Part shown: piece after piece, positions 10,726 through 59,151 of the stretch | Layout: the number at the start of each line of letters is the position of its first letter | How positions within the stretch are numbered: the stretch's first letter is position 1 | DNA from: Candidatus Nealsonbacteria bacterium | GTDB taxonomy: Bacteria > Patescibacteriota > Minisyncoccia > Minisyncoccales > CAZKCU01 | Length of the DNA stretch: 64,000 bases | NCBI GenBank assembly: GCA_047456305.1 | Contig: CP179888.1 | Span: 1,690 to 65,689, forward strand | Direction: 5' to 3' | Position numbers and translations under genes: made by a program | Notes under the pieces: model-generated | Seen by the model: only the letters and a program-made list of their open reading frames with translations | The model's database searches: none | What the model was told of the DNA's origin: nothing

Positions 10726-12081
10726 ATGAAAATCAAAAAGCCAGACGGAACGATAGTGGAAGTGGCCGATGACTATACATTGTTGGAAGGCGAAGAGGAA
10801 GTAAAAGACAAGGGAAAAGATGAGGGAGCTGATGAGTCTCCTGCTGGGACACCTGGAGATGATGCTGGAAATGATGCTGGAGATGATAAAGATAAAGAAA
10901 CCGATGAAGAGAAAAAGGTTAAGACAGGATTGAAGACCTTCATTAGGTCAGAAACTGTTAAGTCCTTGGAGAAGGAGTTGAATAAGATTTCCGATGGATT
11001 GGTCAAGAAGTTCTTTGATGGCGTGACCAAGCAGAGAGCGAATTTGATTGACACCAAGAAGGAAGTCAAGAAGGACAGCGACCAGGAAGTGGTGAGGAAG
11101 TGGTTCAGCGCTCTTATTCGCAGGGACTCCCAGGCAATGGCGGAAATTCAGAAAGGGTTCATGGGAGATACTGATGTAACTCAGGGTGGAAATTTAGTCC
11201 CTACCCAGTTGCTTGCCGAGATAAACAGGTTCACTGAGGAATACGGAGTGGCGCGCAGAGACATGAGATATCTCCCATTCTCTGGACCTGGAAACAACAG
11301 ATGGATTCCAGCTTTGGCAAATTCAGTTAGTGTTTATTGGACTGCTAAAGGTGAAGCCAAGACATCGACCAAACCTACTTTCGGATTAGTTGAGCAGACC
11401 CTTGAAAAGCTTGCTGCCATCGTCCCGATAACCGAAGAGATTCTTGAGGATGCTGCAATCAACATTATAGCGTTGCTTGGTGAGTTGTTCGGTGAGGCGA
11501 TTGCGAAAGAGGAAGACAGAGTTTTCTTGAACGGAGACACCGGGGCAGGAGATCCTTACATGGGCGCCATCAGAGCAGTTGGAATCATTCCTGTGCCGAT
11601 GGGAGTCGGAGTTATTGCGAATATCACTGCCGATGATTTGAACAATCTTATCTATGCTGTTCCGAGAGCGATTAGAGATAAGGGTAAGTTCTACATGCAT
11701 AGCACCATCTTCCAGATTTTGCAGCAATTGAAGACTGCTCAGGGAATCTATATTGTGCAATCTCCTGTTGGAGCTAAGCCCGGCTCGATTTGGAACAGAC
11801 CTTATGAGCTGGTTGACATTCTTCCAGACAATTCAGTTTCAGGCGAAGATGAGCCAGTCATGTTCTATACTGATCTTTCCAAGACTTGCGTTTACGGAGA
11901 CAAGCAGGGTTTGAGGGTGAAGTTGCTCGACCAGGCAATTGTTAAGTCTGCAGAGGAGTCTCCTTCCGATTTGAACCTTGCCACCCAGGATATGGTTGCC
12001 TTGAGAATTGCGAAGAGGGTAGGCTATGTTCCTGTCCTTCCTGCCGGTATCGCTGTGTTGCAGTTAGGTGCAGAATCCTAA
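10726..12081 (+). CDS. major capsid protein, HK97 fold, with acidic N-terminal delta/scaffold-like region
   Basis: 451 aa. The acidic, low-complexity first ~130 aa are followed by a typical HK97-family capsid core (GGNLVPTQLLAEI...). Position after the protease. Confidence 0.85.
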   Translation: MKIKKPDGTIVEVADDYTLLEGEEEVKDKGKDEGADESPAGTPGDDAGNDAGDDKDKETDEEKKVKTGLKTFIRSETVKSLEKELNKISDGLVKKFFDGVTKQRANLIDTKKEVKKDSDQEVVRKWFSALIRRDSQAMAEIQKGFMGDTDVTQGGNLVPTQLLAEINRFTEEYGVARRDMRYLPFSGPGNNRWIPALANSVSVYWTAKGEAKTSTKPTFGLVEQTLEKLAAIVPITEEILEDAAINIIALLGELFGEAIAKEEDRVFLNGDTGAGDPYMGAIRAVGIIPVPMGVGVIANITADDLNNLIYAVPRAIRDKGKFYMHSTIFQILQQLKTAQGIYIVQSPVGAKPGSIWNRPYELVDILPDNSVSGEDEPVMFYTDLSKTCVYGDKQGLRVKLLDQAIVKSAEESPSDLNLATQDMVALRIAKRVGYVPVLPAGIAVLQLGAES

Positions 12082-12176
12082 ACTAATTCCTTGTGATTAG
12101 CCATCCTATTTGAACTCAAAATTGTCCGAGAGATTCAAGTAGGATAGGACAATTGGGTAATCGCAAGAACAAAATA

Positions 12177-12533
12177 ATGACAAAAAAAGAAAAGCTAATT
12201 TACTTAGCTGGAATAATTGATGGAGAAGGTTGTATGGGAAGGGTTTGTAGCACAAGTAAAAAAAGAATGAAGGAAGGCAGGAAGGCATCTTATTCTGTCA
12301 GATGTGAAGTAAGTAATACCTCAAAAAAACTAATAGATTGGTTATATGAAAATTTTGGTGGATACAAATATCCTATTAAAAGAGAAGAAAATAGAAAATT
12401 ACAATATAGATGGAAGTTAAGAAGAAAAGAGATGAAAAAGATTATTCCCCAGATGATTCCTTATTTAATTATTAAGAAAAATGAAGCGAAACAATTGTTC
12501 GCGAGATTTAAGCGGGATAGAACAACCGGATAG
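12177..12533 (+). CDS. LAGLIDADG homing endonuclease (free-standing), copy 1
   Basis: YLAGIIDGEGC motif. Clear paralog of 26358..26768. ATG at 12177 lies inside the TTG-started track ORF. Confidence 0.8.
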   Translation: MTKKEKLIYLAGIIDGEGCMGRVCSTSKKRMKEGRKASYSVRCEVSNTSKKLIDWLYENFGGYKYPIKREENRKLQYRWKLRRKEMKKIIPQMIPYLIIKKNEAKQLFARFKRDRTTG

Positions 12534-17838: not shown

Positions 17839-18780
17839 ATGCACATAGGACGCAGAAACCAATTGAATATTACATTAGACCCGGTAGTAAGGATAGATAC
17901 CATTCCTTACCTTAGCTGCACACTCCAGGAAAGACACACTCCGATTGCCGACACGCAAGCGAAAGCAAGGAGAGATGCCGAAGGAAGTAAATCAGTGGAA
18001 GGAAAGAAATGGGGAGACGGAAGAGTTGAGGTCGTATTGGATCCGACTACAGCTCCTTACTGGTTGGCTTTGGCTTTGGGCAGGATAAATAGCTCCACGC
18101 CAAAGGACCATCTAATTACCCAGAGTCCAGAGAACGAGCCATTGATAGCCACAATTTCCAGGGAAAGGAATATGGGAGAAATAATTGAATTTCTGAATTC
18201 GGTGGTCGATACTTTTGAGCTTAATTTTGCCGATGATGTAGCAAAGTTGGGCATGGATATTATGTCAAAATATCCAACGTCTCCTGAAAGCCCGGAAAGT
18301 CCGGGAGATGTGGGAGAGGGAGAAGATCTGACCTATTACACATTCAGGAACGCCACTGTGAAGGTCGGCGATTTGGAGAGTCCAGAAGCGATGATACTGA
18401 TTCAGGTCAGGGAGCTGACCTTGAGGATTGAAAATGGGGCAGAGATTATCTTCTTGCCAAGAGGTGAGATTAGGATTGTTTGGAAGGCGATAAGGGTATC
18501 AGGCCATTTCAAGCTTTTATTCGAAGACGAAGTTCAATTAGGAGCTTTTGCCGATATATCTGCCAAACAAGGTTTGCTTATCACCTTTGAAGGAGAGGAT
18601 AGCGACAAGATAGAAATAGCAATTCCTACATTCAGGGTGGATAATTGGAGTGAGGAAGCCGGAATAGATGACTTGGTGGAAGAGGGGATTGACTTTGTGG
18701 CAGAATACGATGTCGATGCGGAAAAGACGATAAGCGCGGAGGTAGTCAACGGGGTCGACAGATACAAAGAAGAGTCATAA
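17839..18780 (+). CDS. major tail (tube) protein
   Basis: 313-aa ORF directly upstream of the chaperone pair and tape measure. No sheath gene is present, so a siphovirus-type tail is expected. Confidence 0.5.
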   Translation: MHIGRRNQLNITLDPVVRIDTIPYLSCTLQERHTPIADTQAKARRDAEGSKSVEGKKWGDGRVEVVLDPTTAPYWLALALGRINSSTPKDHLITQSPENEPLIATISRERNMGEIIEFLNSVVDTFELNFADDVAKLGMDIMSKYPTSPESPESPGDVGEGEDLTYYTFRNATVKVGDLESPEAMILIQVRELTLRIENGAEIIFLPRGEIRIVWKAIRVSGHFKLLFEDEVQLGAFADISAKQGLLITFEGEDSDKIEIAIPTFRVDNWSEEAGIDDLVEEGIDFVAEYDVDAEKTISAEVVNGVDRYKEES

Positions 18781-19165: not shown

Positions 19166-19320
19166 CCTCAGAAATGCAGATGGTATCAATCTGCGAGCTT
19201 CTGGGTTGGGATTACGATCAATACATGAGCCAGCCGGTTTGGTTTATTGAGTATTTGAAAGACAAGCTAAAGATCGACAGTGAGAATGCCCAGGAACAGA
19301 CCAGGAGGCTTAAAAAATAA
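19129..19320 (+). CDS. possible -1 frame extension of the tail assembly chaperone (G/GT-like)
   Basis: The ORF is in the -1 frame relative to 18788..19165 and overlaps it by 37 nt. The -1 frame is open from 19096. GGGAAAAATTTT at 19106-19117 is a possible, non-canonical slip site. Confidence 0.3.
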   Translation: MEARRQYRFGKLTSEMQMVSICELLGWDYDQYMSQPVWFIEYLKDKLKIDSENAQEQTRRLKK

Positions 19321-20813
19321 TGCCTGATTACAAGCTACAATTTATCATAGATGCCCAAAATAAAGCTGACAAAGTGTTCAAGCAGGTGGAAACAGGTATG
19401 GGCAAAATACAAAAAAGACTGAAGGACATGCAGCCAGCTTTCAAAAAGATGGCGATGATTGGAACTGCTGCCTTTGCTGCTGTTACTGCAGCTGTCTATA
19501 AATGTGTTCAGGCGTATTTCGCACAAGAAAGAACCGAAGCAAGATTAGCCCATCTTTTGAAACAGACCTCTGGCGCGACGAAAGAGCAAGTAGATATGCT
19601 TAAACTGCAAGCCACAGCTCTGCAAAAAGTCGGGGTTGTAGGGGACGAAGTGGTTATGATGGGACAATCCCAACTGGCGACATTCGCCTTGAATGCCGAT
19701 ACCATAAAGGTTCTTACCCCCTCGCTGATGGATATGGCTGTTTCTGTCAAGGGGGTGAATGTAACGCAGGAGGACATGATAACCATCGGGAACTTGCTCG
19801 GAAAGGTAATGGCGGGGCAGGTCGGCGCTTTGGGGAGGTATGGTGTGACTTTAAGCGACACCCAGATAGAGCAGTTGAAAATGGGAACTGAAATGGAAAG
19901 AGCAACAGTTTTGGCAGAAGTTTTGGAGGGGAACTATGGCGGATTAAATGAAGCAACAAGAGAGACAGCTGAAGGAGGGATGAAGGCCCTGAAGAATGAG
20001 ATGGGAGACTTAACAGAAAAAATAGGAGAGGCTTTTATCCCAATGCTTGAATCGGTAATCGAAAAAGTGTCTCCCGTAGTTGAAAAAATGGATAAATGGA
20101 TTAAAGAAAATCCCGAGCTTACAAAGACCATAATTATTGTTGCTGCTGCCATCGCAGGATTGGTGGCGATAATCGGAGGGCTTGGATTGATTCTGCCTGG
20201 TATAATAGCAGGCTTTGGTCTTTTGTCGGTTCCAGTATTTATTATTATTGGACTTTTAGCTCTTTTAGGTCTTGCCATTTACAAAATTAAGGAAAACTGG
20301 GCAAAAGACTTAGAGACTTTGAAGTGGATTTGGGAAAATTTCAAAGTAGGTTTGGAAGGAATTTGGACTCACATCCATGATTTCTTTGTAGAGACTTGGG
20401 AAGGAATAAAAAGTGATTTTAAGACAGGGGTAAACTTTCTGATAGGGCTGGCAGAAGGATGGGCGAACATGTGGGTCAAAGCGGTCAATGTGATTATAGG
20501 AGCATTAAACAAATTAAAAATTTCAGTGCCGTGGTGGGTTCCAGGGATCGGGGGAAAGTCCTGGGGTGTCAATATAGCAAAGGCAGCAGAGGTTGTGCTT
20601 CCTCGTTTAGCTAAGGGAGGACTGATTATGGGACCTACTGCAGTATTGGCCGGAGAAAAAGAGCCAGAGGCCATAGTCCCTTTAAGCAGAATGGCATTGG
20701 CTGGAGGAACAATCAATGTCTATATCCAGGGTGGCAATTATCTCTCGAGAGACGCAGCATTAATGTTTGGGAAGGAAATTGCCAAGGAGGTAAAGCGCAA
20801 CATCAAATTGTAA
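19320..20813 (+). CDS. tape measure protein
   Basis: 497 aa. Helical N-terminus, central hydrophobic block (IIIVAAAIAGLVAIIGGLGLILPGIIAGFGLL...). Canonical position. Confidence 0.75.
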   Translation: MPDYKLQFIIDAQNKADKVFKQVETGMGKIQKRLKDMQPAFKKMAMIGTAAFAAVTAAVYKCVQAYFAQERTEARLAHLLKQTSGATKEQVDMLKLQATALQKVGVVGDEVVMMGQSQLATFALNADTIKVLTPSLMDMAVSVKGVNVTQEDMITIGNLLGKVMAGQVGALGRYGVTLSDTQIEQLKMGTEMERATVLAEVLEGNYGGLNEATRETAEGGMKALKNEMGDLTEKIGEAFIPMLESVIEKVSPVVEKMDKWIKENPELTKTIIIVAAAIAGLVAIIGGLGLILPGIIAGFGLLSVPVFIIIGLLALLGLAIYKIKENWAKDLETLKWIWENFKVGLEGIWTHIHDFFVETWEGIKSDFKTGVNFLIGLAEGWANMWVKAVNVIIGALNKLKISVPWWVPGIGGKSWGVNIAKAAEVVLPRLAKGGLIMGPTAVLAGEKEPEAIVPLSRMALAGGTINVYIQGGNYLSRDAALMFGKEIAKEVKRNIKL

Positions 20814-20814
20814 A

Positions 20815-22224
20815 ATGGAAATTCAAATTATCATAAACGAGGAAGATAGGACGTCTGACATCGCCCTTGACAGTATCCAAAAGGAGGATCTGATAAACGA
20901 GACGAAAGATACCCTGATGTTTCAAGTCAGGAAATACGGGACGAAGGGCTTTGTGCCGAAAGTGAACGAGGAGGTGGTGATGAATATAGACGGGCAGATA
21001 GAGTTCGGAGGGGCGATAGTGAGCGTCGAGAAGTCAATACAGGCAGGGCAGATGGTCGTTTATGATGTCGTTTGCTCTGACTACTCGCTGTTCCTTAACA
21101 GGAAGCTAGTGCTGGAGAGGTTTGATAATCAAACAGTAAACTACATTATCGATTTCATAGCGGATAAATATGCAGAAGGTTTCACGATAATAAATGTCAA
21201 CTGCCCGGTAGAAGTGAAGACAATGACATTCAACCGCCTGACGATGTCGGAATGTCTTGAGAAGCTGGCGAAGGCCGTGGGATATTCTTGGTATGTCGAT
21301 TACGATAAGGATCTCCATTTCTTCCCCAAAAACGAGAATTCGGCACCTTTCATAGTAGAAGACGACAACGGAAAATACTTGCAGGACACTCTAAAGATAA
21401 CGGACGATTTGAGCCAGATAAGAAACAAAGTCTTCATCAGGGGTTCGGAGGAGAGAGCAACAGCAAGGACTGAGATATACGTCGGCGATGCGGACCAGAA
21501 AATATTCCCTCTGGCCAACAAATTCGCCGAAAAGCCGACAGTTGAAGTTAATGATGTCGAGGTGGATGTCGGTGTGGATTACTTGCACAAGGAAGAGGAC
21601 TATGACTGCTTCTGGAATTTTCTGCAGAAATACATGAGGTTCAAGGAGAACATGGATGGGAAGAAAGTTGAGATTATAGGTATCCCTTTGTTCCCTGTTC
21701 TGGTGGCAATTCCAGAGTCAGTTTCAATTATCAAGTATGGAATTTACGAATTTTTCAAAGAAGAGAAAAGCATCGCAAGCAGGGAAGAGGCACTGAAATA
21801 TGCCCAAGCCCAACTGGAGGCATACAAGGACGGAGTAATGGAGGGGGGCTTTCAGACGGACACTCCCGGATTGAGAAGCGGACAGATAATAAGGATAAAT
21901 TCCTCTTTGCTCGGCATCGACGAAGAGTTCTTGATACAAAAGGTCTCATTCAGTGCGATAGCGAAAGACAAGGGGATATGGTCTGTGGACCTGGCCATGA
22001 TGAGGATTGTCGGTATTATTCAAGTGCTCCAGGATTTGATAAGAGCCAGGGAGATAAGAGAATTTGACCCAGAGAATCTGTTTACTTTATTACAATTAGA
22101 AGATAGTTGCGGAGCGACTGATTCCATAGAAGCTCCAGTTGTGACAACTACAAAGGATTATGTTTGGGTTGGGAATAGCGAACCAAACCCTATAATCTGG
22201 AATTGTTGGACTTGGGCTGATTAA
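20815..22224 (+). CDS. distal tail / baseplate-hub-like tail protein
   Basis: 469-aa ORF immediately after the tape measure. Confidence 0.5.
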   Translation: MEIQIIINEEDRTSDIALDSIQKEDLINETKDTLMFQVRKYGTKGFVPKVNEEVVMNIDGQIEFGGAIVSVEKSIQAGQMVVYDVVCSDYSLFLNRKLVLERFDNQTVNYIIDFIADKYAEGFTIINVNCPVEVKTMTFNRLTMSECLEKLAKAVGYSWYVDYDKDLHFFPKNENSAPFIVEDDNGKYLQDTLKITDDLSQIRNKVFIRGSEERATARTEIYVGDADQKIFPLANKFAEKPTVEVNDVEVDVGVDYLHKEEDYDCFWNFLQKYMRFKENMDGKKVEIIGIPLFPVLVAIPESVSIIKYGIYEFFKEEKSIASREEALKYAQAQLEAYKDGVMEGGFQTDTPGLRSGQIIRINSSLLGIDEEFLIQKVSFSAIAKDKGIWSVDLAMMRIVGIIQVLQDLIRAREIREFDPENLFTLLQLEDSCGATDSIEAPVVTTTKDYVWVGNSEPNPIIWNCWTWAD

Positions 22225-26357: not shown

Positions 26358-26768
26358 ATGTCAATAGAAAAAATAGTTTATTTAGCAGGAATAATAGATG
26401 GGGAAGGATGTGTTAAACCTTCTAAAAGCAATTATCCACGATGTATAGTATCCAATACTTCAAAAGAATTGGTTGATTGGCTTTATGATAATTTTGGAGG
26501 GTATAAAAGTCCCAGTAAAAGAGAAGGAAATAGAAAATTACAATATTGGTGGATGTTACGAAAAAAAGAGATGAAAAATATCCTTCCTTTAATTATTCCT
26601 TATTTAATAATTAAAAAAGAAGAAGCAAAGCAATCTTTAAGATTGGCACAGAAAGAATATCCTAATCCCTTTTTGGGAAGAAAACATACTAAAAAATCTA
26701 AAAGAAAAATGACTAAAGCATTAAAAAAAATTTGGAAAGATAGAAAACTTATGAATTTAAAAAAATAG
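26358..26768 (+). CDS. LAGLIDADG homing endonuclease, copy 2
   Basis: YLAGIIDGEGC motif. Long collinear similarity to copy 1 (SNTSKELVDWLYDNFGGYK..NRKLQYWW..IPYLIIKKEEAKQ). Confidence 0.8.
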   Translation: MSIEKIVYLAGIIDGEGCVKPSKSNYPRCIVSNTSKELVDWLYDNFGGYKSPSKREGNRKLQYWWMLRKKEMKNILPLIIPYLIIKKEEAKQSLRLAQKEYPNPFLGRKHTKKSKRKMTKALKKIWKDRKLMNLKK

Positions 26769-26791: not shown

Positions 26792-27235
26792 ATGATTTCC
26801 TTGTGCTTATTGGGTCAGCCTCTTATTGCTCAAGCCCCTTCAATTCCTTCTGAGACATCTCTTGTGTTTATCCAAGAGAATTCGGTGATGGCAGTTTCAA
26901 AGCTCTCTAATCCGCCTAAAACTGGCACTTTAGGAGCTTTATATGGCGAGGAGGATATAAGAGACCTTATAAGGAAGAAATATCCAGAATTATATTGGAT
27001 TGTTAAATGCGAATCAAATTTTAGACCAAATGTATGTTCCTTTGCTGGATGCCCGGCAGGAATGGGATTGATACAAGTCATCCCATCCAGTTTGAGGTTG
27101 TGCAAGAAAGAATTAGAAAAAGAACTAAATCCTTATAATGTTGAGGATAATTTAGAATGCGGAAAGGTTCTTTTAAGAATTCAAGGCTTAAATGCGTGGA
27201 ATTCAAGTAGAAATTGCTGGCAACAGTATTATTAA
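26792..27235 (+). CDS. lytic transglycosylase (SLT domain), secreted
   Basis: N-terminal signal-like segment. VKCESNFRPNVCS...AGMGLIQV matches the E-S...GLMQ SLT motif. Confidence 0.7.
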   Translation: MISLCLLGQPLIAQAPSIPSETSLVFIQENSVMAVSKLSNPPKTGTLGALYGEEDIRDLIRKKYPELYWIVKCESNFRPNVCSFAGCPAGMGLIQVIPSSLRLCKKELEKELNPYNVEDNLECGKVLLRIQGLNAWNSSRNCWQQYY

Positions 27236-28048: not shown

Positions 28049-29005
28049 ATGAAAAAATCTAACATTCCTATAATTAAACATATCCCCGACTTTTTAGACT
28101 ATTGTGAAGTTGAAAAAGGATTAGCAGATAAAACTCAACTAAATTATAACCGCTACCTCACCAAGTTCACCCACTGGCTCAAAAAGACCAAAAAAGACAA
28201 CCTTCTGCCTCATGAACTGACTGCCGATGATATCTGGGCCTATCGCTTATATTTAAGTCGTTATACAGGAGAAAAAGGCCGTCCCTTGAAGAAAGTCACC
28301 CAGAACTACTATTTAATAGCTTTAAGAGCCCTTTTAAGCTATTTTACAGCCAAAGACCTAATATCACTCCCCGCAGATAAAATAAAGCTCCCAAAAGACG
28401 CTAAAGCCGAAAAAACCTTAAAATTCCTTAATTTAGAGCAAATTGAGAGGCTTTTAACAACTCCTAAGGGAAACAGCCCAATTGACTTACGGAATAGAGC
28501 TATTTTAGAGACACTTTTCTCAACCGGCCTTAGGATAGCTGAATTAGTGGCTCTGAACAAGGAACAGTTTACTAATATAAAAGATAAGAAAGATTTAGAA
28601 ATTGGAATTATTGGTAAAGGAAGTCATCCCCGCACAGTCTATTTTTCAGAAAGAGCCCTGTCTTGGATTAAGAAGTATTTGGAAACTCGTAAAGACAAAG
28701 AAAAACCATTATTTATACATTATAGAGCCCGGGAAGACGCCGAAGCCCGCCTTACAGCTCGTTCTATAGAAAGAATTGTCAAAAAATACGCTGTTTTAGC
28801 TGGCGTTCCTATCTTTACCACTCCTCATACTCTTCGTCACTCAATGGCAACTGATTTATTAACCCAAGGAGTTGATTTAAGAACTATTCAGGAATTTTTA
28901 GGCCACAGAAATATCGTCACAACTCAAATATATACCCACGTAACAAATAAGCGCCTCCGAGACATCCACCGTCAGTACCACAGCGGCAAAAATTTAAAAG
29001 AATAG
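28049..29005 (+). CDS. tyrosine recombinase / integrase, XerC/XerD family
   Basis: N-terminal SAM-like core-binding domain. The C-terminus ...RNRAILETLFSTGLRIAEL...HTLRHSMATDLL..G.DLRTIQEFLGHRNIVTTQIYTHV supplies the R..HxxR..Y catalytic set. Confidence 0.9.
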   Translation: MKKSNIPIIKHIPDFLDYCEVEKGLADKTQLNYNRYLTKFTHWLKKTKKDNLLPHELTADDIWAYRLYLSRYTGEKGRPLKKVTQNYYLIALRALLSYFTAKDLISLPADKIKLPKDAKAEKTLKFLNLEQIERLLTTPKGNSPIDLRNRAILETLFSTGLRIAELVALNKEQFTNIKDKKDLEIGIIGKGSHPRTVYFSERALSWIKKYLETRKDKEKPLFIHYRAREDAEARLTARSIERIVKKYAVLAGVPIFTTPHTLRHSMATDLLTQGVDLRTIQEFLGHRNIVTTQIYTHVTNKRLRDIHRQYHSGKNLKE

Positions 29006-32388: not shown

Positions 32389-32443
32389 CTTTCCTCTAAA
32401 TTATTTTTCTTTTTGTTGAGCTTCGAGTTAAATTTTAGTTATT

Positions 32444-32569
32444 TTAGTGCTTTTCTTCAAATTTCCATTCGGTTTTGTGTTTTGGTAAGTTTGTCCATTT
32501 GGTCTTGTGTTTCTTGGGTGTTCTCGATTTTGTTTTATGTTTTTTTTCGGACTTCCATTTTGTTGGCAT
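32444..32569 (-). CDS. 41-aa lysine/histidine-rich peptide (below the ORF-track cutoff)
   Basis: Hand translation gives MPTKWKSEKKHKTKSRTPKKHKTKWTNLPKHKTEWKFEEKH. Framed by the same Y (5') and X-like (3') junction modules as its neighbours. Confidence 0.25.
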   Translation of the reverse strand: MPTKWKSEKKHKTKSRTPKKHKTKWTNLPKHKTEWKFEEKH

Positions 32570-32581
32570 AAAATTATAAAA

Positions 32582-32608
32582 GTTTTATTTCTCAATTAAT
32601 TCTTCGAC
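32582..32608 (-). repeat. junction module Y, copy 4
   Basis: The minus strand reads GTCGAAGAATTAATTGAGAAATAAAAC, 12 nt before the ATG of the 41-aa ORF. Confidence 0.75.
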
Positions 32609-32624
32609 CTTTATAATTTTCCTT

Positions 32625-32642
32625 AACTTCGGGCTAAATTTT
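32625..32642 (-). repeat. junction module X, copy 4
   Basis: AAAATTTAGCCCGAAGTT after the stop of 32649..33038. Degenerate copies lie at 32420-32436 and 34753-34768. Confidence 0.8.
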
Positions 32643-32648
32643 AGTTAT

Positions 32649-33038
32649 TTAATCGTTAAGTAGTTTAGGATTCTTCTTCCTAAAATATGCAATCAAAATT
32701 ACCTCTACTAAACTACACATATCTTTATCTTTTATTTCCTTATAGGCAAATTTACAATTATCAATAACCCATTTTCGCATTAATTTACCAAATGGAATTC
32801 CGTATATCTCATGTATTTTCTTTCTAAAAATACTTGTAGAACCTCTTCGTTCTCCAGAAATATGATCACTGTTTATCCTTCTATTTAAATTTTTCCCCTT
32901 CCCTGCGTAAATAATTTGATTTTTATTATAAATTAAATAAACTCCCTGGATTTCTGGAATTTTTCTAGTGTTTTCTATGGGTTTATTATTTAATAATTGA
33001 TTGGCAATTTTCTTTGCCTTTTTTAAAATTATTTCCAT
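32649..33038 (-). CDS. GIY-YIG nuclease-domain protein
   Basis: GVYLIYNKNQIIYAGKGKNLNRRI fits GIY...YIG...R. Confidence 0.6.
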   Translation of the reverse strand: MEIILKKAKKIANQLLNNKPIENTRKIPEIQGVYLIYNKNQIIYAGKGKNLNRRINSDHISGERRGSTSIFRKKIHEIYGIPFGKLMRKWVIDNCKFAYKEIKDKDMCSLVEVILIAYFRKKNPKLLND

Positions 33039-33044
33039 TTCCTC

Positions 33045-33062
33045 AATTTCGGGCTAAATTTT
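33045..33062 (-). repeat. junction module X, copy 3
   Basis: AAAATTTAGCCCGAAATT after the stop of 33065..33667. Confidence 0.8.
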
Positions 33063-33064
33063 GA

Positions 33065-33667
33065 TTATTTTTTATTTAATTTTCTTTTAAAATATTTTTC
33101 CGGATTTTTAAAATTTAAAATAGCTTCATTTATTACACTTTTTTCTTTTTCCTTTAACTTACTATTCTTAATTAATTGTTCAATCCATTCTGCAGTGGCT
33201 TTAAGATAAATACATAATAATCTTTCTGCCAGTTTTGTTTTTTCCCCTTCATTGTCAATATATTTTTTCATTTCTTTTTCTGTTTTTTTGATGCTTTGTT
33301 TGGATTTAATTATTCGGTGCATAGCCTCAATCCTTATTTTATTAAATTTTTCAATATCTTTAATAATCGATTTATCCTTTAAAACTCTTTCAAGGTTTAA
33401 TTTTGAATATCCAAGAGGTTTATTGACTGATAATGTCATAGCCTTAAACATGCTTTTTTTAAGGTGTAAATTTATTATATCTTCATTCAACTTAATAATT
33501 TCCTCTATGAGGTATTCAATTATTTGACTTTTAAAAAGAATATATGCTATATAAAATCCTTTTGTATATAGCATACTCCCTCTATCTAAAACTTGCATCA
33601 ATAATTTTGCTCCGCAATGTATCTCTTCTAATTTTTTCCTTAATCGGGTTAACTTCTTTTTTTGCAT
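33065..33667 (-). CDS. hypothetical helical protein (200 aa)
   Basis: ORF between X-type junctions. Confidence 0.4.
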   Translation of the reverse strand: MQKKKLTRLRKKLEEIHCGAKLLMQVLDRGSMLYTKGFYIAYILFKSQIIEYLIEEIIKLNEDIINLHLKKSMFKAMTLSVNKPLGYSKLNLERVLKDKSIIKDIEKFNKIRIEAMHRIIKSKQSIKKTEKEMKKYIDNEGEKTKLAERLLCIYLKATAEWIEQLIKNSKLKEKEKSVINEAILNFKNPEKYFKRKLNKK

Positions 33668-33687
33668 GATTTTTACAAAATTTCTTC

Positions 33688-33705
33688 AACTTCGGGCTAA
33701 ATTTT
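33688..33705 (-). repeat. junction module X, copy 2
   Basis: Identical 18-mer AAAATTTAGCCCGAAGTT after the stop of 33709..34035. Confidence 0.8.
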
Positions 33706-33708
33706 GAT

Positions 33709-34035
33709 TTATTTAAAAATTTTACTAAATGCCTCTATTAAAAATTTTATAGGACTAACTAACAACTCTAAAAAACCTAACAATCTAAACCTTAATGACC
33801 AAGGATAGTTTGCCCCACAATTATGACAATTAAGTGGTACAGGAGTAGAGGTCAAATCCACAAATCCTTCAATAATATAATGACCACGAATTGGAACGCC
33901 ACATTTAGGGCACCTATAAATTGTCTTTGCTCCGCATTTGTCACAAAATTCCTGTCTGAATTTAGGTGAACTATTATAATGGTCGGTTATTTGGTGCCCC
34001 CTCCGGCAAACCTGCATTGTCTCATAATGCCCCAT
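33709..34035 (-). CDS. multi-zinc-ribbon protein
   Basis: Three zinc-ribbon-like units: CRRGH...CDKCG, CPKCG, CHNCG. Confidence 0.5.
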   Translation of the reverse strand: MGHYETMQVCRRGHQITDHYNSSPKFRQEFCDKCGAKTIYRCPKCGVPIRGHYIIEGFVDLTSTPVPLNCHNCGANYPWSLRFRLLGFLELLVSPIKFLIEAFSKIFK

Positions 34036-34040
34036 AGTCT

Positions 34041-34068
34041 AATTTTATTTCTCAATTAATTTTTCGAC
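34041..34068 (-). repeat. junction module Y, copy 3
   Basis: The minus strand reads GTCGAAAAATTAATTGAGAAATAAAATT, 5 nt before the ATG. Confidence 0.75.
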
Positions 34069-34081
34069 TTTTTAGCTATAA

Positions 34082-34336
34082 TCACTTAAAGATCGCCACG
34101 ATTAACGAAAGAATAGTAATAACAGCCATTACAATTGTTATATTTTTTTGAAATCCTTTAACGTGACTTAATGTCTCATTTTGATTTTCTAGCGCTTCTA
34201 GTTGGAATACTTCTGGCGCTGTCATCACCCTTTTACACTTAGCACATATAAAATATGCCGGTATCGCACCCACCTCAAGCTCTCGCCTTGAGTCAGTATG
34301 TATCTCCCACTCGTGGTCGCATTTATTTTTAATCAT
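34082..34336 (-). CDS. small zinc-ribbon protein with C-terminal TM anchor
   Basis: CDHEW...CAKCKRV, then ITIVMAVITILSLIVAIF. Confidence 0.45.
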   Translation of the reverse strand: MIKNKCDHEWEIHTDSRRELEVGAIPAYFICAKCKRVMTAPEVFQLEALENQNETLSHVKGFQKNITIVMAVITILSLIVAIFK

Positions 34337-34342
34337 ATTTTT

Positions 34343-34360
34343 AACTTCGGGCTAAATTTT
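34343..34360 (-). repeat. junction module X, copy 1
   Basis: The minus strand reads AAAATTTAGCCCGAAGTT, starting 2 nt after a stop codon. Confidence 0.8.
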
Positions 34361-34362
34361 AA

Positions 34363-34725
34363 TTAGTTTTTATTTTTTGATTTATGATTGGTTAATAATT
34401 CGTGTTCTTCGTGTAAAATCTTTCCAGTTTTATTATCTTTTACTACGTGATGATATTCGTTTTTCTCACGATCAATTTCCATCTGAACTTCTACACCTTC
34501 TGACAACTTAGGATTTGTACTTGGCTTAAAACCACTGAAAACTTTTTTTAAAAACCCCTTAAAACCAGGACGTTTCTGTATTATTCTTATTGAATCCCGA
34601 ACTTTGACCGTATCAGAAATACATACTTTAAAAAGATTTGGTGTTTCTTTCTGGCATTGTCTACAAAATTTCGATTCTTTTTCTAGACCGCATTCTACAC
34701 AAAAAATTTTATCCGATTCTTCCAT
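34363..34725 (-). CDS. zinc-ribbon protein (120 aa)
   Basis: CVECG...CRQCQ. The true ATG is at 34725; the track ORF starts at a TTG inside the conserved junction. Confidence 0.45.
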   Translation of the reverse strand: MEESDKIFCVECGLEKESKFCRQCQKETPNLFKVCISDTVKVRDSIRIIQKRPGFKGFLKKVFSGFKPSTNPKLSEGVEVQMEIDREKNEYHHVVKDNKTGKILHEEHELLTNHKSKNKN

Positions 34726-36047: not shown

Positions 36048-37502
36048 TTAAAGTAATTTACTTTTAATATTTTTATCTAACTCCTCGAATCGTTTAATTG
36101 ATAAATCCAAATATTTTTTATCGGTATCAATACCGACAAAATTTCTCCCTAAAAGATAAGCGGCAATGCCGGTTGTCGAGCTTCCGGTGAACGGATCAAC
36201 AATCAAATCCCCCTTTTTGGTACTAGCAAGCACAATTCTTTTTAATAAATCCTCCGGTTTTTGTGTTGGATGTTTTCCAAATTTTTTTTCAACAGACTTT
36301 GGCGTTCCTATAGACCAGATCGATCGCATTTGCGTATTGGGCTTTTTGATGGAATCTTCCGGCCAACTACCGTTCTTCATTAAATTATAATTGAAAGTGT
36401 GTTTTGCTTCTTTATCTTTCCTCGCCCAAAGCAAAGTTTCATGACTTGCGGTAAAATAACGACAGCTTAAATTAGGCGATGCATTCGGTTTAAACCAAGA
36501 AATATCATTTAAAATATGGAATTTAGCGACCTGCATAGCGAAACCGCATTGATAAATTGAATGATAGGTTCCGCTTACCCAAAGAGTTCCATTGGGCTTT
36601 AAAACACGCCTTACAGCCTTTATCCATTCGAGATGAAACTCAAAATCTTTTTTCAATCCATTACTTCTATCCCATTCTCCTTTATTAACGCTAACACGCC
36701 GCCCGGCATGAAGACTAAAGCCCCCGTTAGAAAGCAGATAAGGAGGATCGGCAAAAACCATATCAATCGAATTCTCTGGAAGCTCTGCGAGAATATCCAA
36801 GCAATTAGCGTGATACAATTTAAATTTAGGTTTCTCATAATATGGCTTCTTTGTTCCTATAATTTCTTTCTTTTGTTCCGAAGCTGTATTTTCTTTCCTC
36901 ACCATCTTTCCGATTAATTGTATTTCGGAAGTAAAGGGAATGTTTTTATATTTCAGATTTTCCGGCTTTAAGAATTTGTAGGGCGGTTTAGTTTGGCAAA
37001 CATAACGTTTTACGGTTGTACCATCTGGAGTTTGAGCTAAAACAATGTCGCCTGAGATGAATTCATTAGTTTTTTTAAACAAGATCAAATCTCCGTCGTT
37101 GATATTAGCATTAATCATTGAATCCCCCATAACGCGGACCACAATCACGTTGTCGGCAATAGTTTCTACGTCTTTTGATAAAGGTTGCCAAGCGTCAATT
37201 TCTTCTATAGCTTCGGTAAAACCTCCGGCCGAAGTATAACCGACTATCGGAGCTAAAGGAGAAACATCTATTGCTCTGTACCCTTTTTTGAGAATTTTGA
37301 TTCCGCGAGCCGAACCTTCTTCGCGAGTAATAAAATTCTTTCTTTCCAAAATAGAAAAAATGTCCAAAAGAGTTTGGTTTGAAGAAATATTGAGCTTTTC
37401 TTTAAGCTCGCTGAAAGAAGGTGGAAAACCGGCAGAAATCAAACTGTCATAAATGTTCTTTAGAACTTCCTTTTGTCTTTTTGTTATAGCTTCTTTTTGC
37501 AT
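36048..37502 (-). CDS. fusion protein: LexA-like repressor (wHTH + S24 peptidase) joined to a beta-class N6A/N4C DNA methyltransferase
   Basis: Residues ~1-205 are collinear with LexA: TKRQKEVL..GFPPS..E....RGIKIL, an Ala-Gly site in TSAGGF, GDSM serine, TVKRY lysine. Residues ~230-484 carry DPPY (motif IV) before DPFTGSSTTG (motif I). Confidence 0.8.
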   Translation of the reverse strand: MQKEAITKRQKEVLKNIYDSLISAGFPPSFSELKEKLNISSNQTLLDIFSILERKNFITREEGSARGIKILKKGYRAIDVSPLAPIVGYTSAGGFTEAIEEIDAWQPLSKDVETIADNVIVVRVMGDSMINANINDGDLILFKKTNEFISGDIVLAQTPDGTTVKRYVCQTKPPYKFLKPENLKYKNIPFTSEIQLIGKMVRKENTASEQKKEIIGTKKPYYEKPKFKLYHANCLDILAELPENSIDMVFADPPYLLSNGGFSLHAGRRVSVNKGEWDRSNGLKKDFEFHLEWIKAVRRVLKPNGTLWVSGTYHSIYQCGFAMQVAKFHILNDISWFKPNASPNLSCRYFTASHETLLWARKDKEAKHTFNYNLMKNGSWPEDSIKKPNTQMRSIWSIGTPKSVEKKFGKHPTQKPEDLLKRIVLASTKKGDLIVDPFTGSSTTGIAAYLLGRNFVGIDTDKKYLDLSIKRFEELDKNIKSKLL

Positions 37503-53110: not shown

Positions 53111-53818
53111 TTACTTTCCGAATGTTCGCTGGCGGCTACTATATTCTCTAATAGCTTCATCTAAATCTTTTTCTTTAAAATCTGGCCAAAGTTTTTCTGA
53201 AAAATAAAGTTCAGAATAGGCTGTCTGCCAAAGTAAAGAATTTGATAATCTTTGTTTACCCCCAGCCCGAATAATTAAATCGGGATCGGGCAAGCCAACA
53301 GTAGAAATGTACTGATTAAAGAGTTCCTCGGTAACTTTTCCTGGTGAAATGCCATCTTGAATAATTCTTTGGGTGGCTTGAACAATATCCCATCTTCCTC
53401 CATAGCTTATTCCAAGATTTAAAAAAAACTTATTGTTATTTTTTGTAGCTTCCTCAACTTCCCGGATGATTTTTTGGAGAGATTCAGAAAGCCTTTCTTT
53501 TTGACCTATTACTCTGATCCTTACTCCTAATTTTTGGTATTTTGGAGTATTAAGGTACTTTTGAAGGTTTTCTCTTAATCCTTTTTCTAAAAACCGCATT
53601 AAAAAAGAAACTTCTCTTTTGGCCCGATTCCAATTTTCGGTTGAAAAACCAAAGACAGTCAAAATTTTCACTCCTCTTTTCTGGCACCAACCCCAAAATC
53701 TTAATAAATTTTTATAACCTTCCCAATAGCCTCTTAAAGCTGGTAGTCCCCTTTCTCTGGCCCAGCCCTGATTACCATCAGGAAATAAAACAATGTGATA
53801 TGGAACCTTGATTTTCAT
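53111..53818 (-). CDS. uppS: isoprenyl transferase (undecaprenyl diphosphate synthase)
   Basis: [21 protein letters not shown] and a C-terminal RTFGK match the UPP synthase family. Confidence 0.9.
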   Translation of the reverse strand: MKIKVPYHIVLFPDGNQGWARERGLPALRGYWEGYKNLLRFWGWCQKRGVKILTVFGFSTENWNRAKREVSFLMRFLEKGLRENLQKYLNTPKYQKLGVRIRVIGQKERLSESLQKIIREVEEATKNNNKFFLNLGISYGGRWDIVQATQRIIQDGISPGKVTEELFNQYISTVGLPDPDLIIRAGGKQRLSNSLLWQTAYSELYFSEKLWPDFKEKDLDEAIREYSSRQRTFGK

Positions 53819-53966
53819 AATATTCTATTTTAATTGGTTCTTTTTCTTGCTGCTTAGCTGTTATATAACCTGTAGCAAAAGAAAGTAAAGAAATTAAAAT
53901 TACGCCAATTAGTAAAATTATATCATCTTGGTGGTCTTTGACAAATTGTAAGATTTTTGCTAACAT
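53778..53966 (-). CDS. small membrane protein
   Basis: 62-aa ORF with one TM segment ([20 protein letters not shown]). Overlaps the uppS start. Confidence 0.35.
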
Positions 53967-53974
53967 TTTATTGT

Positions 53975-54247
53975 ATGGCTAAGACTAAAGCAGCTGGTGC
54001 TACAAAATTAGGAAGGGATTCTCTCCCAAAATATTTAGGCGTAAAACTCTTTGAGGGTCAGAAAACTCGACCTGGCAGTATTATTATTCGCCAGTGAGGT
54101 ACCAAATTTCTTCCCGGTAAAAATGTTAAAAGAGGAAGAGACGATACTTTATATGCCTTAAAAGAAGGTATTGTTCACTTTGTGACAAAGAGAAAAAAAG
54201 GCTTTGACAACTCACAAAGAATCGCTAAGATTGTTAATGTTAAATAG
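53975..54247 (+). pseudogene. rpmA: 50S ribosomal protein L27 gene with an in-frame TGA at codon 41 (absent from the ORF track)
   Basis: Hand translation gives [40 protein letters not shown][TGA][28 protein letters not shown]... It is collinear with L27. The TGA (54095-54097) replaces the Arg of the conserved RQRGTK. Confidence 0.85.
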
Positions 54248-54255
54248 AATCCTGT

Positions 54256-55902
54256 TCAAGATTTAGTTTTCTGTTGTTTTAGGATTATTTTAATAAACTC
54301 TTTAAATAATGGATGCGGCCTCAACGGCCTTGATTTATATTCGGGATGAAATTGAACTCCCACAAAAAAAGGATGATTTTTAATCTCAATAATTTCTACC
54401 AGGTCTTTTTCTGGATTTATCCCGGCCATTATCATCCCCTTCCTTTCTAAAACCTCGCGAAACTCATTATTTAGTTCATATCTGTGTCTATGGCGCTCAG
54501 AGGTATAAAATGACCTGTAAGCCCTAAAACTGACTGTTTTTGGTCCAATTCTACAGGGATAAGTTCCTAATCTCATTGTCTTCTTATCGATCAACGGATA
54601 TTGGCAATTTGGTGAAAATTCAGTTGAATTTGCTCCTTTTAAGCCGCAAACATTTCTGGCAAATTCAACTACTGCTAACTGCATTCCTAAACAAAGTCCC
54701 AAGAAAGGGATTTTTTGTTTTCGGCAAAATTTAATTGCTTTAATTTTTCCTTCCACGAGGGGCCCGCCGAAACCACTAGGAATAATTATTCCATCAAATT
54801 TTTTTAATTCTTTAACTGACTGGGGATTCTTTTTGTAATTTTCAGCTGATAACCAGAAAATCTCTGGCTTTCTTTTAAAAAACCAGCAGCTGTGTTTTAT
54901 TGCCTCGACCAATGAGAGATAGCAATCAGTTACCGAGCCTGTTTTAACGGGCGAAGGTGAAGATAAATCTTTAGATTCATCGACTAAAGTGGTAGCCCCT
55001 CCTTTAAAAGATTTCCCAACTATACCGATCTTAACCGGTTTTTTGCAACTCTTAATTATTTTAACTAACTTTTTCCAATCTTTTAAATTATTTTTTCTGC
55101 GTCGCTCACCGAATTTTTTTAAAATTCGATTGCCTAAATTCTCTTCTTCAAAATTAAGAGGTATTTCATAAATTGACTCAGTATCAGGAGCCGAAATAAC
55201 ATCTTCTTCAGCGACATTACAAAAAATCGAAATCTTTCTTTTTTGAGCTGTCTCTAAAGGAACTCTCGCCCGACCAAGAATTATATCTGGCTGAATCCCG
55301 GCTGTATTTAAAGCCCTTACCGCATTCTGGGTAGGTTTTGTCTTTATCTCTCCAATCATTTTTGGGATTGGCAGATAAGAAACGAAAATAAAAAGAACGT
55401 TTTTGGGATGCGAAATCTTCATCATTCTAGCTGCTTCTAAAAACAGCATGTTTTGGTACTCCCCCACTGTTCCCCCAATTTCAATTAAAACAAAATCAGC
55501 CTTATTTTTTTTGGCTGCCTTTTTTATTCGAGAAATTACCTCTTCTGGGATATGAGGGACTACCTCAACACATTTTCCGTCATATTCCAGATTTCTTTCC
55601 CGTAAAATCACTGCCTGATAAACACGGCCGGTGGTCATGTAATTGGCTCTGGTCAAATTTTCATCCAAGAATCTTTCATAATTTCCCATATCTTGGTCAC
55701 ATTGGTCGCCATCTTCGGTTACAAAAACTTCTCCATGAACCAGGAAATCCATTGTTCCGGCATCGACATTAACATAGGGGTCAATTTTAATTGCTGTTAC
55801 CTTGAATCCTTTTGACTGTAAAATTTTTCCAATTGCTGCTGTTGCCACTCCTTTGCCAATGCCAGACATAACGCCTCCAGCAATAAAAATAAAACGAGCC
55901 AT
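54256..55902 (-). CDS. pyrG: CTP synthase
   Basis: N-terminus FIFIAGGVMSGIGKG, amidoligase core and a C-terminal GATase (GLCLGMQ...HRHRYE). Confidence 0.95.
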   Translation of the reverse strand: MARFIFIAGGVMSGIGKGVATAAIGKILQSKGFKVTAIKIDPYVNVDAGTMDFLVHGEVFVTEDGDQCDQDMGNYERFLDENLTRANYMTTGRVYQAVILRERNLEYDGKCVEVVPHIPEEVISRIKKAAKKNKADFVLIEIGGTVGEYQNMLFLEAARMMKISHPKNVLFIFVSYLPIPKMIGEIKTKPTQNAVRALNTAGIQPDIILGRARVPLETAQKRKISIFCNVAEEDVISAPDTESIYEIPLNFEEENLGNRILKKFGERRRKNNLKDWKKLVKIIKSCKKPVKIGIVGKSFKGGATTLVDESKDLSSPSPVKTGSVTDCYLSLVEAIKHSCWFFKRKPEIFWLSAENYKKNPQSVKELKKFDGIIIPSGFGGPLVEGKIKAIKFCRKQKIPFLGLCLGMQLAVVEFARNVCGLKGANSTEFSPNCQYPLIDKKTMRLGTYPCRIGPKTVSFRAYRSFYTSERHRHRYELNNEFREVLERKGMIMAGINPEKDLVEIIEIKNHPFFVGVQFHPEYKSRPLRPHPLFKEFIKIILKQQKTKS

Positions 55903-56487: not shown

Positions 56488-57675
56488 TTATCTCATCTCT
56501 TTTATTACTTCAATAGCCTTATCTAATTGAGGATCCCTTTCCGCTGTATAATCTTCTTCGGTCATTTCTACTTTTATATCCGGCTCCAGGCCAATCTCGG
56601 TAATGAGCTCACCTGAGGGAGTTAACCATCTTGCCACTGTAATCTTAAGAGAAGAACCTTCTTTTAATTTCTCTAATTCCTGAACTGAACCTTTACCAAA
56701 AGATTTTTCGCCAATTATTTTTATACCCCGATTATCACGAAGAGCTGCAGCTAAAATTTCCGATCCAGAAGCCGAACCCTGGTTAATTAAAATCACTATT
56801 GGATATTGTAAAAACCTGGCATTACCTTTAGCTTTATAAATCTTCTGTTCTGTTTCTTGACCAAAATCCTCAATAGCTACAGTCTGTCCTCTTTCCAAGA
56901 ACCAGCCCGAAATATCCCGGGCAACTTCCAAATAACCTCCGGGGTTATTTCGCAAATCTAAAATTATTTTTTCAGCCGGACTATTTAAAATTTCAATTGC
57001 TGCTCCAATAAAGTCAGAACTTGCTTTCTCAGAAAAATGGTAAATCCTTAAATAAGCGATATCTCCTTCCTTTAATTCCCATTTTAAAGAAGGGACTTCA
57101 ATGACTGCTCTAACAATCTTGATTTCTTTTGTAGTCTCCCATTCCTCTCGAAAAATCATTAAAGTAACCTCTGTTCCCTTTGGTCCCCGGATAAGGTTTA
57201 CTGCCTCATCAATAGTGATATCTATTGTCAAAGTATCGTCTATTTTTATAATTTTATCTCCGGGCCTAAACCCTGCTCTCTGAGCAGGGGTTCCCTCTAA
57301 AGGAGCTATTACCTGGAGCTGTCCTTTTCTAATTCCAATTTCCATACCTACTCCTTCAAATTGACCGGTTACATCTTCTAAAAATTTTTTACTATCTTCG
57401 GGGTTTAAAAAGGTGGTATAAGGATCTCCCAAAGACTTTACCATCCCTGAAATTGCTCCATAAATCATTTTTTGAACATCGAGTTTTTCTGGACTGACGA
57501 ATTTTTCTTCAAGTTTCTTCCAGGTTTCCCAAAAAAGCGAAAGGTCAACTTCCTCTAGCGGACAAACCGGGCAAACTACCTGAGCTTTTCCAAACCAAAA
57601 TCCAAATCCAAAACTAGCTAGAATAGCAACAACCAAAAAAACTAAAACAAAATTTTTCTTGACTAAAAAAGCCAT
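56488..57675 (-). CDS. carboxy-terminal processing protease (S41 family) with PDZ domain
   Basis: N-terminal TM segment, a PDZ domain (GTPAQRAGFRPGDKIIKID) and an S41 core (INQGSASGSEILAAAL...GEKSFGKG). Confidence 0.85.
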   Translation of the reverse strand: MAFLVKKNFVLVFLVVAILASFGFGFWFGKAQVVCPVCPLEEVDLSLFWETWKKLEEKFVSPEKLDVQKMIYGAISGMVKSLGDPYTTFLNPEDSKKFLEDVTGQFEGVGMEIGIRKGQLQVIAPLEGTPAQRAGFRPGDKIIKIDDTLTIDITIDEAVNLIRGPKGTEVTLMIFREEWETTKEIKIVRAVIEVPSLKWELKEGDIAYLRIYHFSEKASSDFIGAAIEILNSPAEKIILDLRNNPGGYLEVARDISGWFLERGQTVAIEDFGQETEQKIYKAKGNARFLQYPIVILINQGSASGSEILAAALRDNRGIKIIGEKSFGKGSVQELEKLKEGSSLKITVARWLTPSGELITEIGLEPDIKVEMTEEDYTAERDPQLDKAIEVIKEMR

Positions 57676-57722
57676 ATCTAATATCTTACTTGATTATAGC
57701 AAATATTAGCCAAAAGTAAAAA

Positions 57723-57741
57723 ACCGGAGAACGGTTCTCCG
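57723..57741 (-). terminator. terminator hairpin, copy 1
   Basis: CGGAGAA-CGG-TTCTCCG. T6 follows on the minus strand. Confidence 0.5.
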
Positions 57742-57782
57742 CTAACTTCAGGTCAGTGGTTTAATTTCAATCACAAACAAAA

Positions 57783-57803
57783 ATACGGAGAACGGTTCTC
57801 CGT
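57783..57803 (-). terminator. terminator hairpin, copy 2 (same stem)
   Basis: TACGGAGAA-CGG-TTCTCCGTA with T-runs on both strands. Lies downstream of tRNA-Lys. Confidence 0.55.
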
Positions 57804-57983
57804 ATTTTGTTTAATCGAAAAATAAAGAATAATTCTTTCCGTACTTAAATTTTATAATAAAATTTTATTTAATGCGACACAACTCAGGAGAGCTGAATAG
57901 TTGGTTTATATCTCGCATTTTTAATTTTGAATTTAACAAAAACAAATTGGGCTTACCTCGCGAGGTTGACTTTCCTTAAAAAG

Positions 57984-58056
57984 TGCCCCCACTAGGACTT
58001 GAACCTAGACTTACTGCTTAAAAGGCAGTTACTCTACCAAATTGAGTTATGGGGGC
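57984..58056 (-). tRNA. tRNA-Lys (anticodon TTT)
   Basis: 73 nt. Acceptor GCCCCCA/TGGGGGC, D stem ACTC/GAGT, anticodon stem ACTGC/GCAGT with loop CTTTTAA, T arm CTAGG-TTCAAGT-CCTAG. CCA is not encoded. Confidence 0.9.
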
Positions 58057-58059
58057 ATT

Positions 58060-59151
58060 TTATATTCCTTCTTCTTTCAATTTTTCTAAAAGTTCTTTTT
58101 GTTTTTTGGTTAATCTCTTTGGCGTCTTGACAATCAATTCTACATAGAGATTTCCTCGCCCATAACCTGAAAAATGAGGAATTCCTTTACCAGAAATTCG
58201 TAAAATTTTTCCTGATTCAACACCAGAAGGAACTTTTAATAAAATTTTGGTTCTCTCAAGAGTAAGAACCTCAAGTTCTGCTCCTAAGGCTGCCTGGGAA
58301 AAAGAAATAGGTATTGAGATATATAAATCATCTCCTTTTCTTTTAAAAATTGGGTGCAATTTGACAAGAATTCGAACATATAAATCTCCTGTCTTTCCTC
58401 CTCTTCTACCTGCTTCTCCTTTACCTCCGATTTTTATCACTTGATTGGTGTCAATTCCAGCTGGAATAAAAATTTCTATATCTTCTACTCCCTTAACTCT
58501 CCCCTCTCCTTTACAGACATTGCAGGGAGTTTGTGGCCTCTGGCCCTCCCCACCACATTCAGGACAAGTAATAAATCTGGTAAATGAGCCCAAAAAGGTT
58601 CTTTTTATCTGCTGAACTTCTCCTTTACCCCGGCAAGAAAAACATTCGTTTACAGGAGTATTAGGTTCAGCCCCAGAGTCCCGGCAGCGAGAGCAAAAAA
58701 TCAGTTTTTGTAAAGAAATTACTTTTTCCTTGCCCTTTAGAGTTATCTCTAAGGGAATTTCTATATTAATCTCAATATCTTTTCCTCTTTTTAAATCTTT
58801 TCTTTTTCGAGGAATACCAAAACCGAAGACCTCTTCAAGCATCTCTCCTAAATCTAAATCTCCAAAATCAAACTCTCCACCTTCTCCGGATTCTCCCCAG
58901 GGCCACTGAAAACCAAAATCTGACTCTCCTCCCCCCGGCATCCCTTCAAAAACCCGACCAAATCTATCATATTGAGTTCTTTTTTCCTTATTAGAAAGAA
59001 CCTGATAGGCTTCATTTATTTCTTTGAATTTTTTCTCATCTCCTCCTTTATCAGGATGGTATTTATGGGCCAGTTTGCGGAAGGCCTTTTTGATTTCATC
59101 TTGAGAGGCATTGCGAGAAATGCCCAAAACTTGATAATAATCCTTTGTCAT
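58060..59151 (-). CDS. dnaJ: molecular chaperone DnaJ
   Basis: J domain (YHPDKGG), a G/F-rich linker and four CxxCxGxG zinc-finger repeats. Confidence 0.95.

Follow-up and report, generated by a model that had tools for sequence, protein, structure and literature searches.

The window analysed here, the whole stretch of 64,000 nucleotides, carries in its host part (~38-64 kb) uppS, rpmA, pyrG, rplI, a gene for a CtpB-type S41 protease, tRNA-Lys(UUU), dnaJ, dnaK, grpE and a PMT_2 glycosyltransferase gene. The rpmA gene, which encodes ribosomal protein bL27, is interrupted by an in-frame TGA codon. The features at this locus are as follows:

53975..54247, plus strand: rpmA (bL27), 90 codons plus TAG, with one internal TGA; assigned by translation, PF01016, identity and synteny
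54095..54097, plus strand: TGA at codon 41, the Arg position of RQRGTK; CGA in 8 of 8 related loci examined
53938..53966, plus strand: promoter-like site TTGACA-17-TAACAT with TG extension, from a consensus scan, of putative function

The rpmA frame extends from the ATG at 53975 to the TAG at 54245-54247, with 90 sense positions and a single internal stop, and reads ...GSIIIRQ-stop-GTKFLPG... around the latter; the middle Arg codon of the RQRGTK motif is replaced by TGA and the remaining motif residues are all present. When Arg was placed at codon 41, the Ribosomal_L27 profile (PF01016; curated cutoff, 20.5 bits) matched residues 2-75 of the product with an E-value of 7.4e-31 and 106.5 bits. 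The Arg-restored protein is 82-96% identical to full-length Patescibacteria L27 proteins and retrieved 6,723 homologues, the best 120 of which are 90-108 aa long; among these best 120, every named protein is an L27 from Patescibacteria, Parcubacteria or Nealsonbacteria. The column corresponding to codon 41 is Arg in all 29 aligned relatives (29/29) and lies within an invariant Q-x-G-T-K-F. Thus, the gene shows the whole-domain match expected of bL27 and is syntenic with L27 in close relatives, its frame is broken at codon 41, and apart from this one codon nothing distinguishes it from the rest of the bL27 family. A mechanically produced list of open reading frames (ORFs) contains at rpmA only a 46-aa stub (53957-54097), which is why the gene is missing from a normal ORF track. 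All three elements of the preliminary description of the locus, namely, a frame collinear with L27 over 90 codons, a TGA at the conserved Arg of RQRGTK and a gene invisible in the ORF track, were therefore borne out.

The promoter-like site ends 8 nt upstream of the rpmA ATG and no Shine-Dalgarno sequence was seen by eye, which suggests that the rpmA mRNA may be of the leaderless type or have a very short leader. From the second hexamer of this site through to the ATG, the sequence is identical in the relatives. The site sits within a divergent 62-aa ORF (53778-53966, minus strand) that encodes a hydrophobic stretch and is a called gene in the relatives too, and rpmA does not adjoin rplU in the window or in the related loci examined.

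Beyond the stop, the residues that differ from the nearest relatives (E64, A84 and N88) also occur across the wider family, so this part of the gene bears no mark of decay. We saw no extra disabling change in rpmA, whose promoter-like site and start codon are intact and whose synteny is preserved. Formally, an internal stop marks a pseudogene, and a pseudogene accompanied by a second copy was one of four options that the preliminary description raised without choosing among them. However, it is very improbable that this rpmA is decaying while L27 comes from another, intact copy of the gene elsewhere in the genome, given that the gene has no further disabling change, that every relative examined has its L27 gene at this syntenic locus, and that a tblastn search of the 64-kb window for the suggested second rpmA found no other L27-like sequence. 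Ribosomal protein genes of Patescibacteria are normally single-copy. Against a second copy also speaks the size of Patescibacteria genomes, ~1 Mb (PMC13059738).

Among the conserved genes of the window that were checked, none is frameshifted or truncated. Inspection by eye of six-frame translations of the gaps at 27.2-28.0, 37.5-39.1, 43.6-45.2, 46.5-48.0 and 51.6-53.1 kb revealed no broken genes; these gene-poor gaps contain small genes and repeated terminator-like hairpins. Copies of one such hairpin, roughly AAAAATCGCCAAGAAGGCGGTTTTT, are spread over many intergenic regions, where six-frame translation turns them into repeated pseudo-peptides, e.g. KKPPSWRF. Two cold-shock-protein paralogues (MEGTIKNLTDKGFGFITVDGEEKDLFFHKNELK...) are encoded on the minus strand at ~44.3 kb and ~47.1 kb.

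When the L9 protein of the window was looked up by exact sequence, it led to two related loci in NCBI assemblies, L007 (GCA_013282455.1) and L008 (GCA_964518365.1), which are 98.8% identical to the window at the nucleotide level across 3.4 kb and belong to the same species. Throughout rpmA codons 1-64, the sole difference between these loci and the window is CGA versus TGA at codon 41, so that comparison with them shows the stop to be a singleton, one C>T transition on a same-species background. Codon 41 is likewise CGA in six sister-species contigs (L001-L006, ~93% nucleotide identity). The closest full-length L27, P0001, is encoded on these contigs (e.g. L001, GCA_964551595.1) and is 96% identical; the six contigs share their gene order, and the order uppS-rpmA-pyrG-rplI-ctpB is common to the window and all eight loci (L001-L008). 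The comparison of rpmA in sister genomes that the preliminary description had proposed thus yielded CGA in two same-species and six sister-species loci, in line with its view of a single C>T change, here at the first base of an Arg codon that is CGA in all close relatives. Across ctpB and rplI, the window differs from L007 by two synonymous codon differences in 545 codons. In the sister species, a gene for a Y-family (IMS/DinB) polymerase lies between ctpB and dnaJ (L001, 7819-8853); the counterpart of this site in the window (57675-58060) holds just tRNA-Lys.

Recurrence of the TGA allele was sought with the pattern ATHMGNCARTGAGGNACNAARTTY, a degenerate DNA rendering of I-R-Q-TGA-G-T-K-F with one match in the window, versus zero matches expected by chance; since it demands Ile before Arg and Phe after Lys, the pattern covers L27 genes with I-R-Q and K-F, as opposed to those with V-R-Q or K-I. 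We scanned the GTDB species-representative genomes (185,579 species) and 241 million JGI metagenome records, two DNA collections from both of which the contig of the window itself is absent. Three matches were found in the representative genomes and six in the JGI metagenomes, and none of the nine lies inside an L27 gene, their translations being stop-rich and unrelated to L27; all nine are chance matches. Neither the 40-aa nor the 46-aa truncated L27 product had an exact match in the protein collection, and the same was true of the pyrG, uppS and dnaK products of the window, L9 being the one protein looked up that did match; ENA, Logan and non-representative NCBI assemblies were covered through such exact-protein look-ups only. 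A literature search revealed no previously described rpmA with an in-frame stop.

Downstream of the TGA, at a distance of ~75 nt, begins a mosaic patch (~54170-54780) that spans two convergent gene ends, comprising rpmA codons 65-70, of which 4 differ from L007, and pyrG codons 376-522, with 31 differing codons, 11 of them non-synonymous. The patch is recombination-like or strain-mosaic, and the alleles within it resemble different strains. A strain-mixed locus of this type is typically the kind of place where a metagenome consensus can mix variants. The 67 window-specific substitutions include 20 C>T, 14 T>C, 7 A>G and 7 G>A, a spectrum like that of the L007 lineage. We considered DNA damage and systematic miscalls and set them aside, the substitution spectrum being ordinary and giving no such signal. 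A GGTACC site at 54098-54103 adjoins the TGA and was considered as the possible source of a methylation-linked basecalling miscall.

Roughly the first 27 kb of the window is occupied, on the plus strand, by a tailed-phage structural block with a GC content of 0.39-0.44 and a GC skew of ~+0.22, the GC content of the remainder being 0.30-0.37. The following genes were assigned in this block and immediately after it:

715-1608, plus strand: replication-O-like protein
2489-2836, plus strand: HNH endonuclease
3207-4649, plus strand: terminase
5540-7648, plus strand: portal plus Mu-F protein
10726-12081, plus strand: HK97-type capsid, <30% identical to any GenBank phage
17839-18780, plus strand: tail tube
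19320-20813, plus strand: tape measure
20815-22224, plus strand: baseplate hub
26792-27235, plus strand: SLT lysin
28049-29005: tyrosine integrase, after the phage structural block

The integrase gene is followed by a minus-strand accessory or lysogeny block that extends to ~37.5 kb. Positions 1-~37500 apparently represent a prophage in a Parcubacteria-type genome, a chimeric join being the alternative; no attachment sites were found in the window, and the left end of the element lies beyond it. Prophages of Patescibacteria are known from Absconditabacteria (PMC13059738). At the edge of the prophage block, a minus-strand gene (36048-37502) encodes a 484-aa fusion of a LexA DNA-binding domain, an S24 self-cleaving peptidase and an N6/N4 DNA methyltransferase, an unusual architecture in which an SOS-type repressor is joined to a methylase. 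Within the minus-strand block, an intergenic motif of ~40-60 nt with the core TTTCCTCAACTTCGGGCTAAATTTTGATTA is present in five copies (32412, 32618, 33038, 33681 and 34336) that occupy the gaps between successive small minus-strand genes (32412-34377), and a second, AT-rich repeat, TAATTTTATTTCTCAATTAATT, is found at 32580, 34040, 34725 and 35235; both may be repeated promoter or operator elements. In addition, genes of the homing-endonuclease type are scattered through the phage block (12153-12533, 22758-23327, 26358-26768 and 32649-33038) and include LAGLIDADG (12153-12533), NUMOD3 and GIY-YIG kinds; the LAGLIDADG gene and the ORF at 26358-26768 have in common a 195-nt repeat with 79% identity.

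Throughout the window, TGA is used as a terminator. It ends 11 of the 75 non-overlapping ORFs, including pyrG, the convergent neighbour of rpmA, and takes part in ATGA start/stop overlaps between genes at 9904, 17016 and 17381. The grpE gene ends in ...VRVSK-TGA, where its orthologues have ...VRVSK-TAA at the identical position, and two more stops follow inside four codons. Apart from rpmA, no long gene of the window, host or phage, contains an internal TGA, and treating TGA as sense gives no real window gene a meaningful extension. Lys-UUU is the sole tRNA in the window; no tRNA with anticodon UCA and no suppressor tRNA was detected in the 64 kb, prophage included, nor any Rfam family other than tRNA-Lys. 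UGA reassignment under codes 4 and 25 would go with many in-frame TGAs, disuse of TGA as a terminator, and a tRNA with anticodon UCA alongside loss of RF2; the window displays neither of the first two, and its one tRNA is Lys-UUU. Genome-wide reassignment, judged unlikely in the preliminary description on the grounds that the long conserved genes lack in-frame TGAs, is excluded within the window by the terminator usage described above; the remark made there that Gly or Trp would not restore the Arg also holds, Arg being present in 29/29 relatives. The host is a Parcubacteria-type Patescibacterium that follows the standard code, in which TGA is a stop.

Programmed recoding of the UGA, whether by reassignment (code 25 Gly or code 4 Trp), by selenocysteine insertion or by programmed readthrough or suppression, e.g. 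with a tRNA-UCA, is an extremely improbable explanation. UGA is read as Gly in Absconditabacteria and Gracilibacteria, in which most genes carry internal UGAs, and a prophage fills the first half of the window, with some phages known to carry suppressor tRNAs (PMC13059738). However, TGA terminates genes of the window at orthologous stop positions, no second in-frame TGA occurs in its long genes, the single tRNA is Lys-UUU, the stop is missing even from other strains of the species, no other L27 with this TGA was found in GTDB representatives or JGI metagenomes, and the conserved Arg would not be regained through insertion of Gly, Trp or Sec.

Nor does the sequence around the TGA contain a recognizable recoding signal. 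A search of positions 53850-54350 against Rfam at E <= 1 gave no match, and the predicted RNA fold of 54080-54170 has a minimum free energy of -18.4 kcal/mol (z = -1.76), with 10 of 200 shuffles equally stable, so that no significant hairpin is present; the hairpin in this segment starts at the UGA itself, unlike the bacterial SECIS, which is located downstream. No stimulatory readthrough context is evident at the TGA, the next base being G and the fold not significant, and the sequence downstream of the TGA is also present in the CGA-bearing strains L007 and L008. We rejected selenocysteine insertion, there being no SECIS stem-loop or Rfam match and the orthologues having Arg (29/29) rather than Sec or Cys, and programmed readthrough, the stop not being conserved and CGA occupying its place in two same-species and six sister-species loci. 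Frameshifting (+1 or -1) was discarded by inspection, with L27 homology resuming in the same frame right after the TGA, and so was production of a separate C-terminal polypeptide, for which the next in-frame start would be a GTG at codon 70. Local recoding, another of the options initially raised, accordingly found no support: the TGA is absent from same-species strains with identical flanks, no SECIS-like or other structure was identified, and the pattern scans of the two very large DNA collections found no further L27 gene with such an event.

Taken together, the change is a singleton at a codon that functions as a stop in this window, with neither recoding signals nor gene decay. We interpret the TGA as an unprogrammed CGA>TGA transition that, with moderate confidence, probably results from a faulty consensus or from the capture of a minority variant, a very recent real nonsense allele being less likely. 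The C>T change affects the first base of the Arg-41 CGA in an otherwise intact, functional, single-locus rpmA, and the T at 54095 would stem either from an error in sequencing or consensus calling or from a minority variant taken up at a strain-mixed locus. The living population would then keep CGA and make normal L27. No element of the sequence serves to decode the stop. Two considerations weigh against an error: the window otherwise looks accurately assembled, and C>T is the commonest natural mutation. The general error rate appears low, given the merely two synonymous differences in the 545 codons of ctpB and rplI. An error or minority variant is nevertheless favoured by the combination of the heavy cost of losing L27, the absence of the allele elsewhere and the nearby mosaic patch. 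The bL27 protein is described as present in nearly every bacterium, and E. coli cells that lack it grow slowly and are 10,000-fold less viable, although they still survive (PMC12871816), so a fixed null allele is unlikely a priori. Such an allele should be strongly counter-selected, whereas errors escape selection. Hence, we infer that the T is erroneous or does not represent the population, as opposed to having become fixed, and class the TGA with artefacts and trivial mutations instead of with genuine biological features.

A possible, although distinctly less probable, explanation is a genuine and very recent nonsense allele, with L27 either lost and its absence tolerated at a cost, or made at a low level via leaky UGA readthrough. 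One transition, with surrounding sequence identical to that of same-species strains, is what a young mutation would look like, and nothing else in the window pointed to poor assembly. For a real allele, leaky readthrough would be the only plausible route to full-length L27, and insertion of Arg at the UGA would restore the wild-type protein. However, basal readthrough is low in bacteria, the UGA stands in no known stimulatory context (a G follows; z = -1.76), and the allele was unseen in any other assembly or metagenome searched. In yeast, UGA readthrough inserts Trp, Cys and Arg (PMC4150775), and E. coli is viable, if poorly, without bL27, but the fitness cost of L27 loss is heavy (PMC12871816).

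It is very improbable that the TGA is real and fixed and that this Patescibacterium has bL27-less ribosomes or depends on unusually leaky UGA decoding. Were that so, a near-cognate tRNA-Arg would re-create wild-type L27 or tRNA-Trp would insert Trp, RF2-mediated termination would be weak in a lineage still employing UGA as a stop, and the organism might represent an intermediate toward the UGA reassignment of other Patescibacteria. A fixed allele would also be a rare natural bacterial nonsense codon in bL27 and a handle on UGA leakiness in Patescibacteria. For a lone in-frame stop in a universal gene on a metagenome-derived contig, same-species assemblies and reads are to be compared before recoding is invoked.

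Among known systems, the window gene most directly parallels the intact bL27 genes of Parcubacteria and Nealsonbacteria-like genomes, e.g. P0003 (L007/L008) and P0001 (L001), which likewise encode proteins of 90-93 aa with 96% amino acid identity and share with it the promoter-like site, the start codon and the uppS-rpmA-pyrG-rplI-ctpB neighbourhood; these genes differ from that of the window in having CGA (Arg) rather than TGA at codon 41. Code 25 of Absconditabacteria and Gracilibacteria offers a parallel within the same phylum, with UGA inside conserved genes. In those lineages, however, UGA is found throughout most genes and has no terminator role (PMC13059738), whereas in the window it is a terminator and occurs in-frame once, and Gly would be unfit for an L27 position at which Arg is conserved. 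Bacterial selenocysteine insertion, which relies on a UGA and a downstream SECIS hairpin, resembles the window in having an in-frame UGA in a coding gene, but here the orthologues have Arg, the downstream sequence is the same in the CGA strains and the fold is insignificant. Finally, leaky readthrough of premature UGA codons by near-cognate tRNAs (Trp, Cys and Arg) is an unprogrammed background process of low efficiency, and the UGA in the window is accompanied by neither a stimulatory context nor a stimulatory structure.
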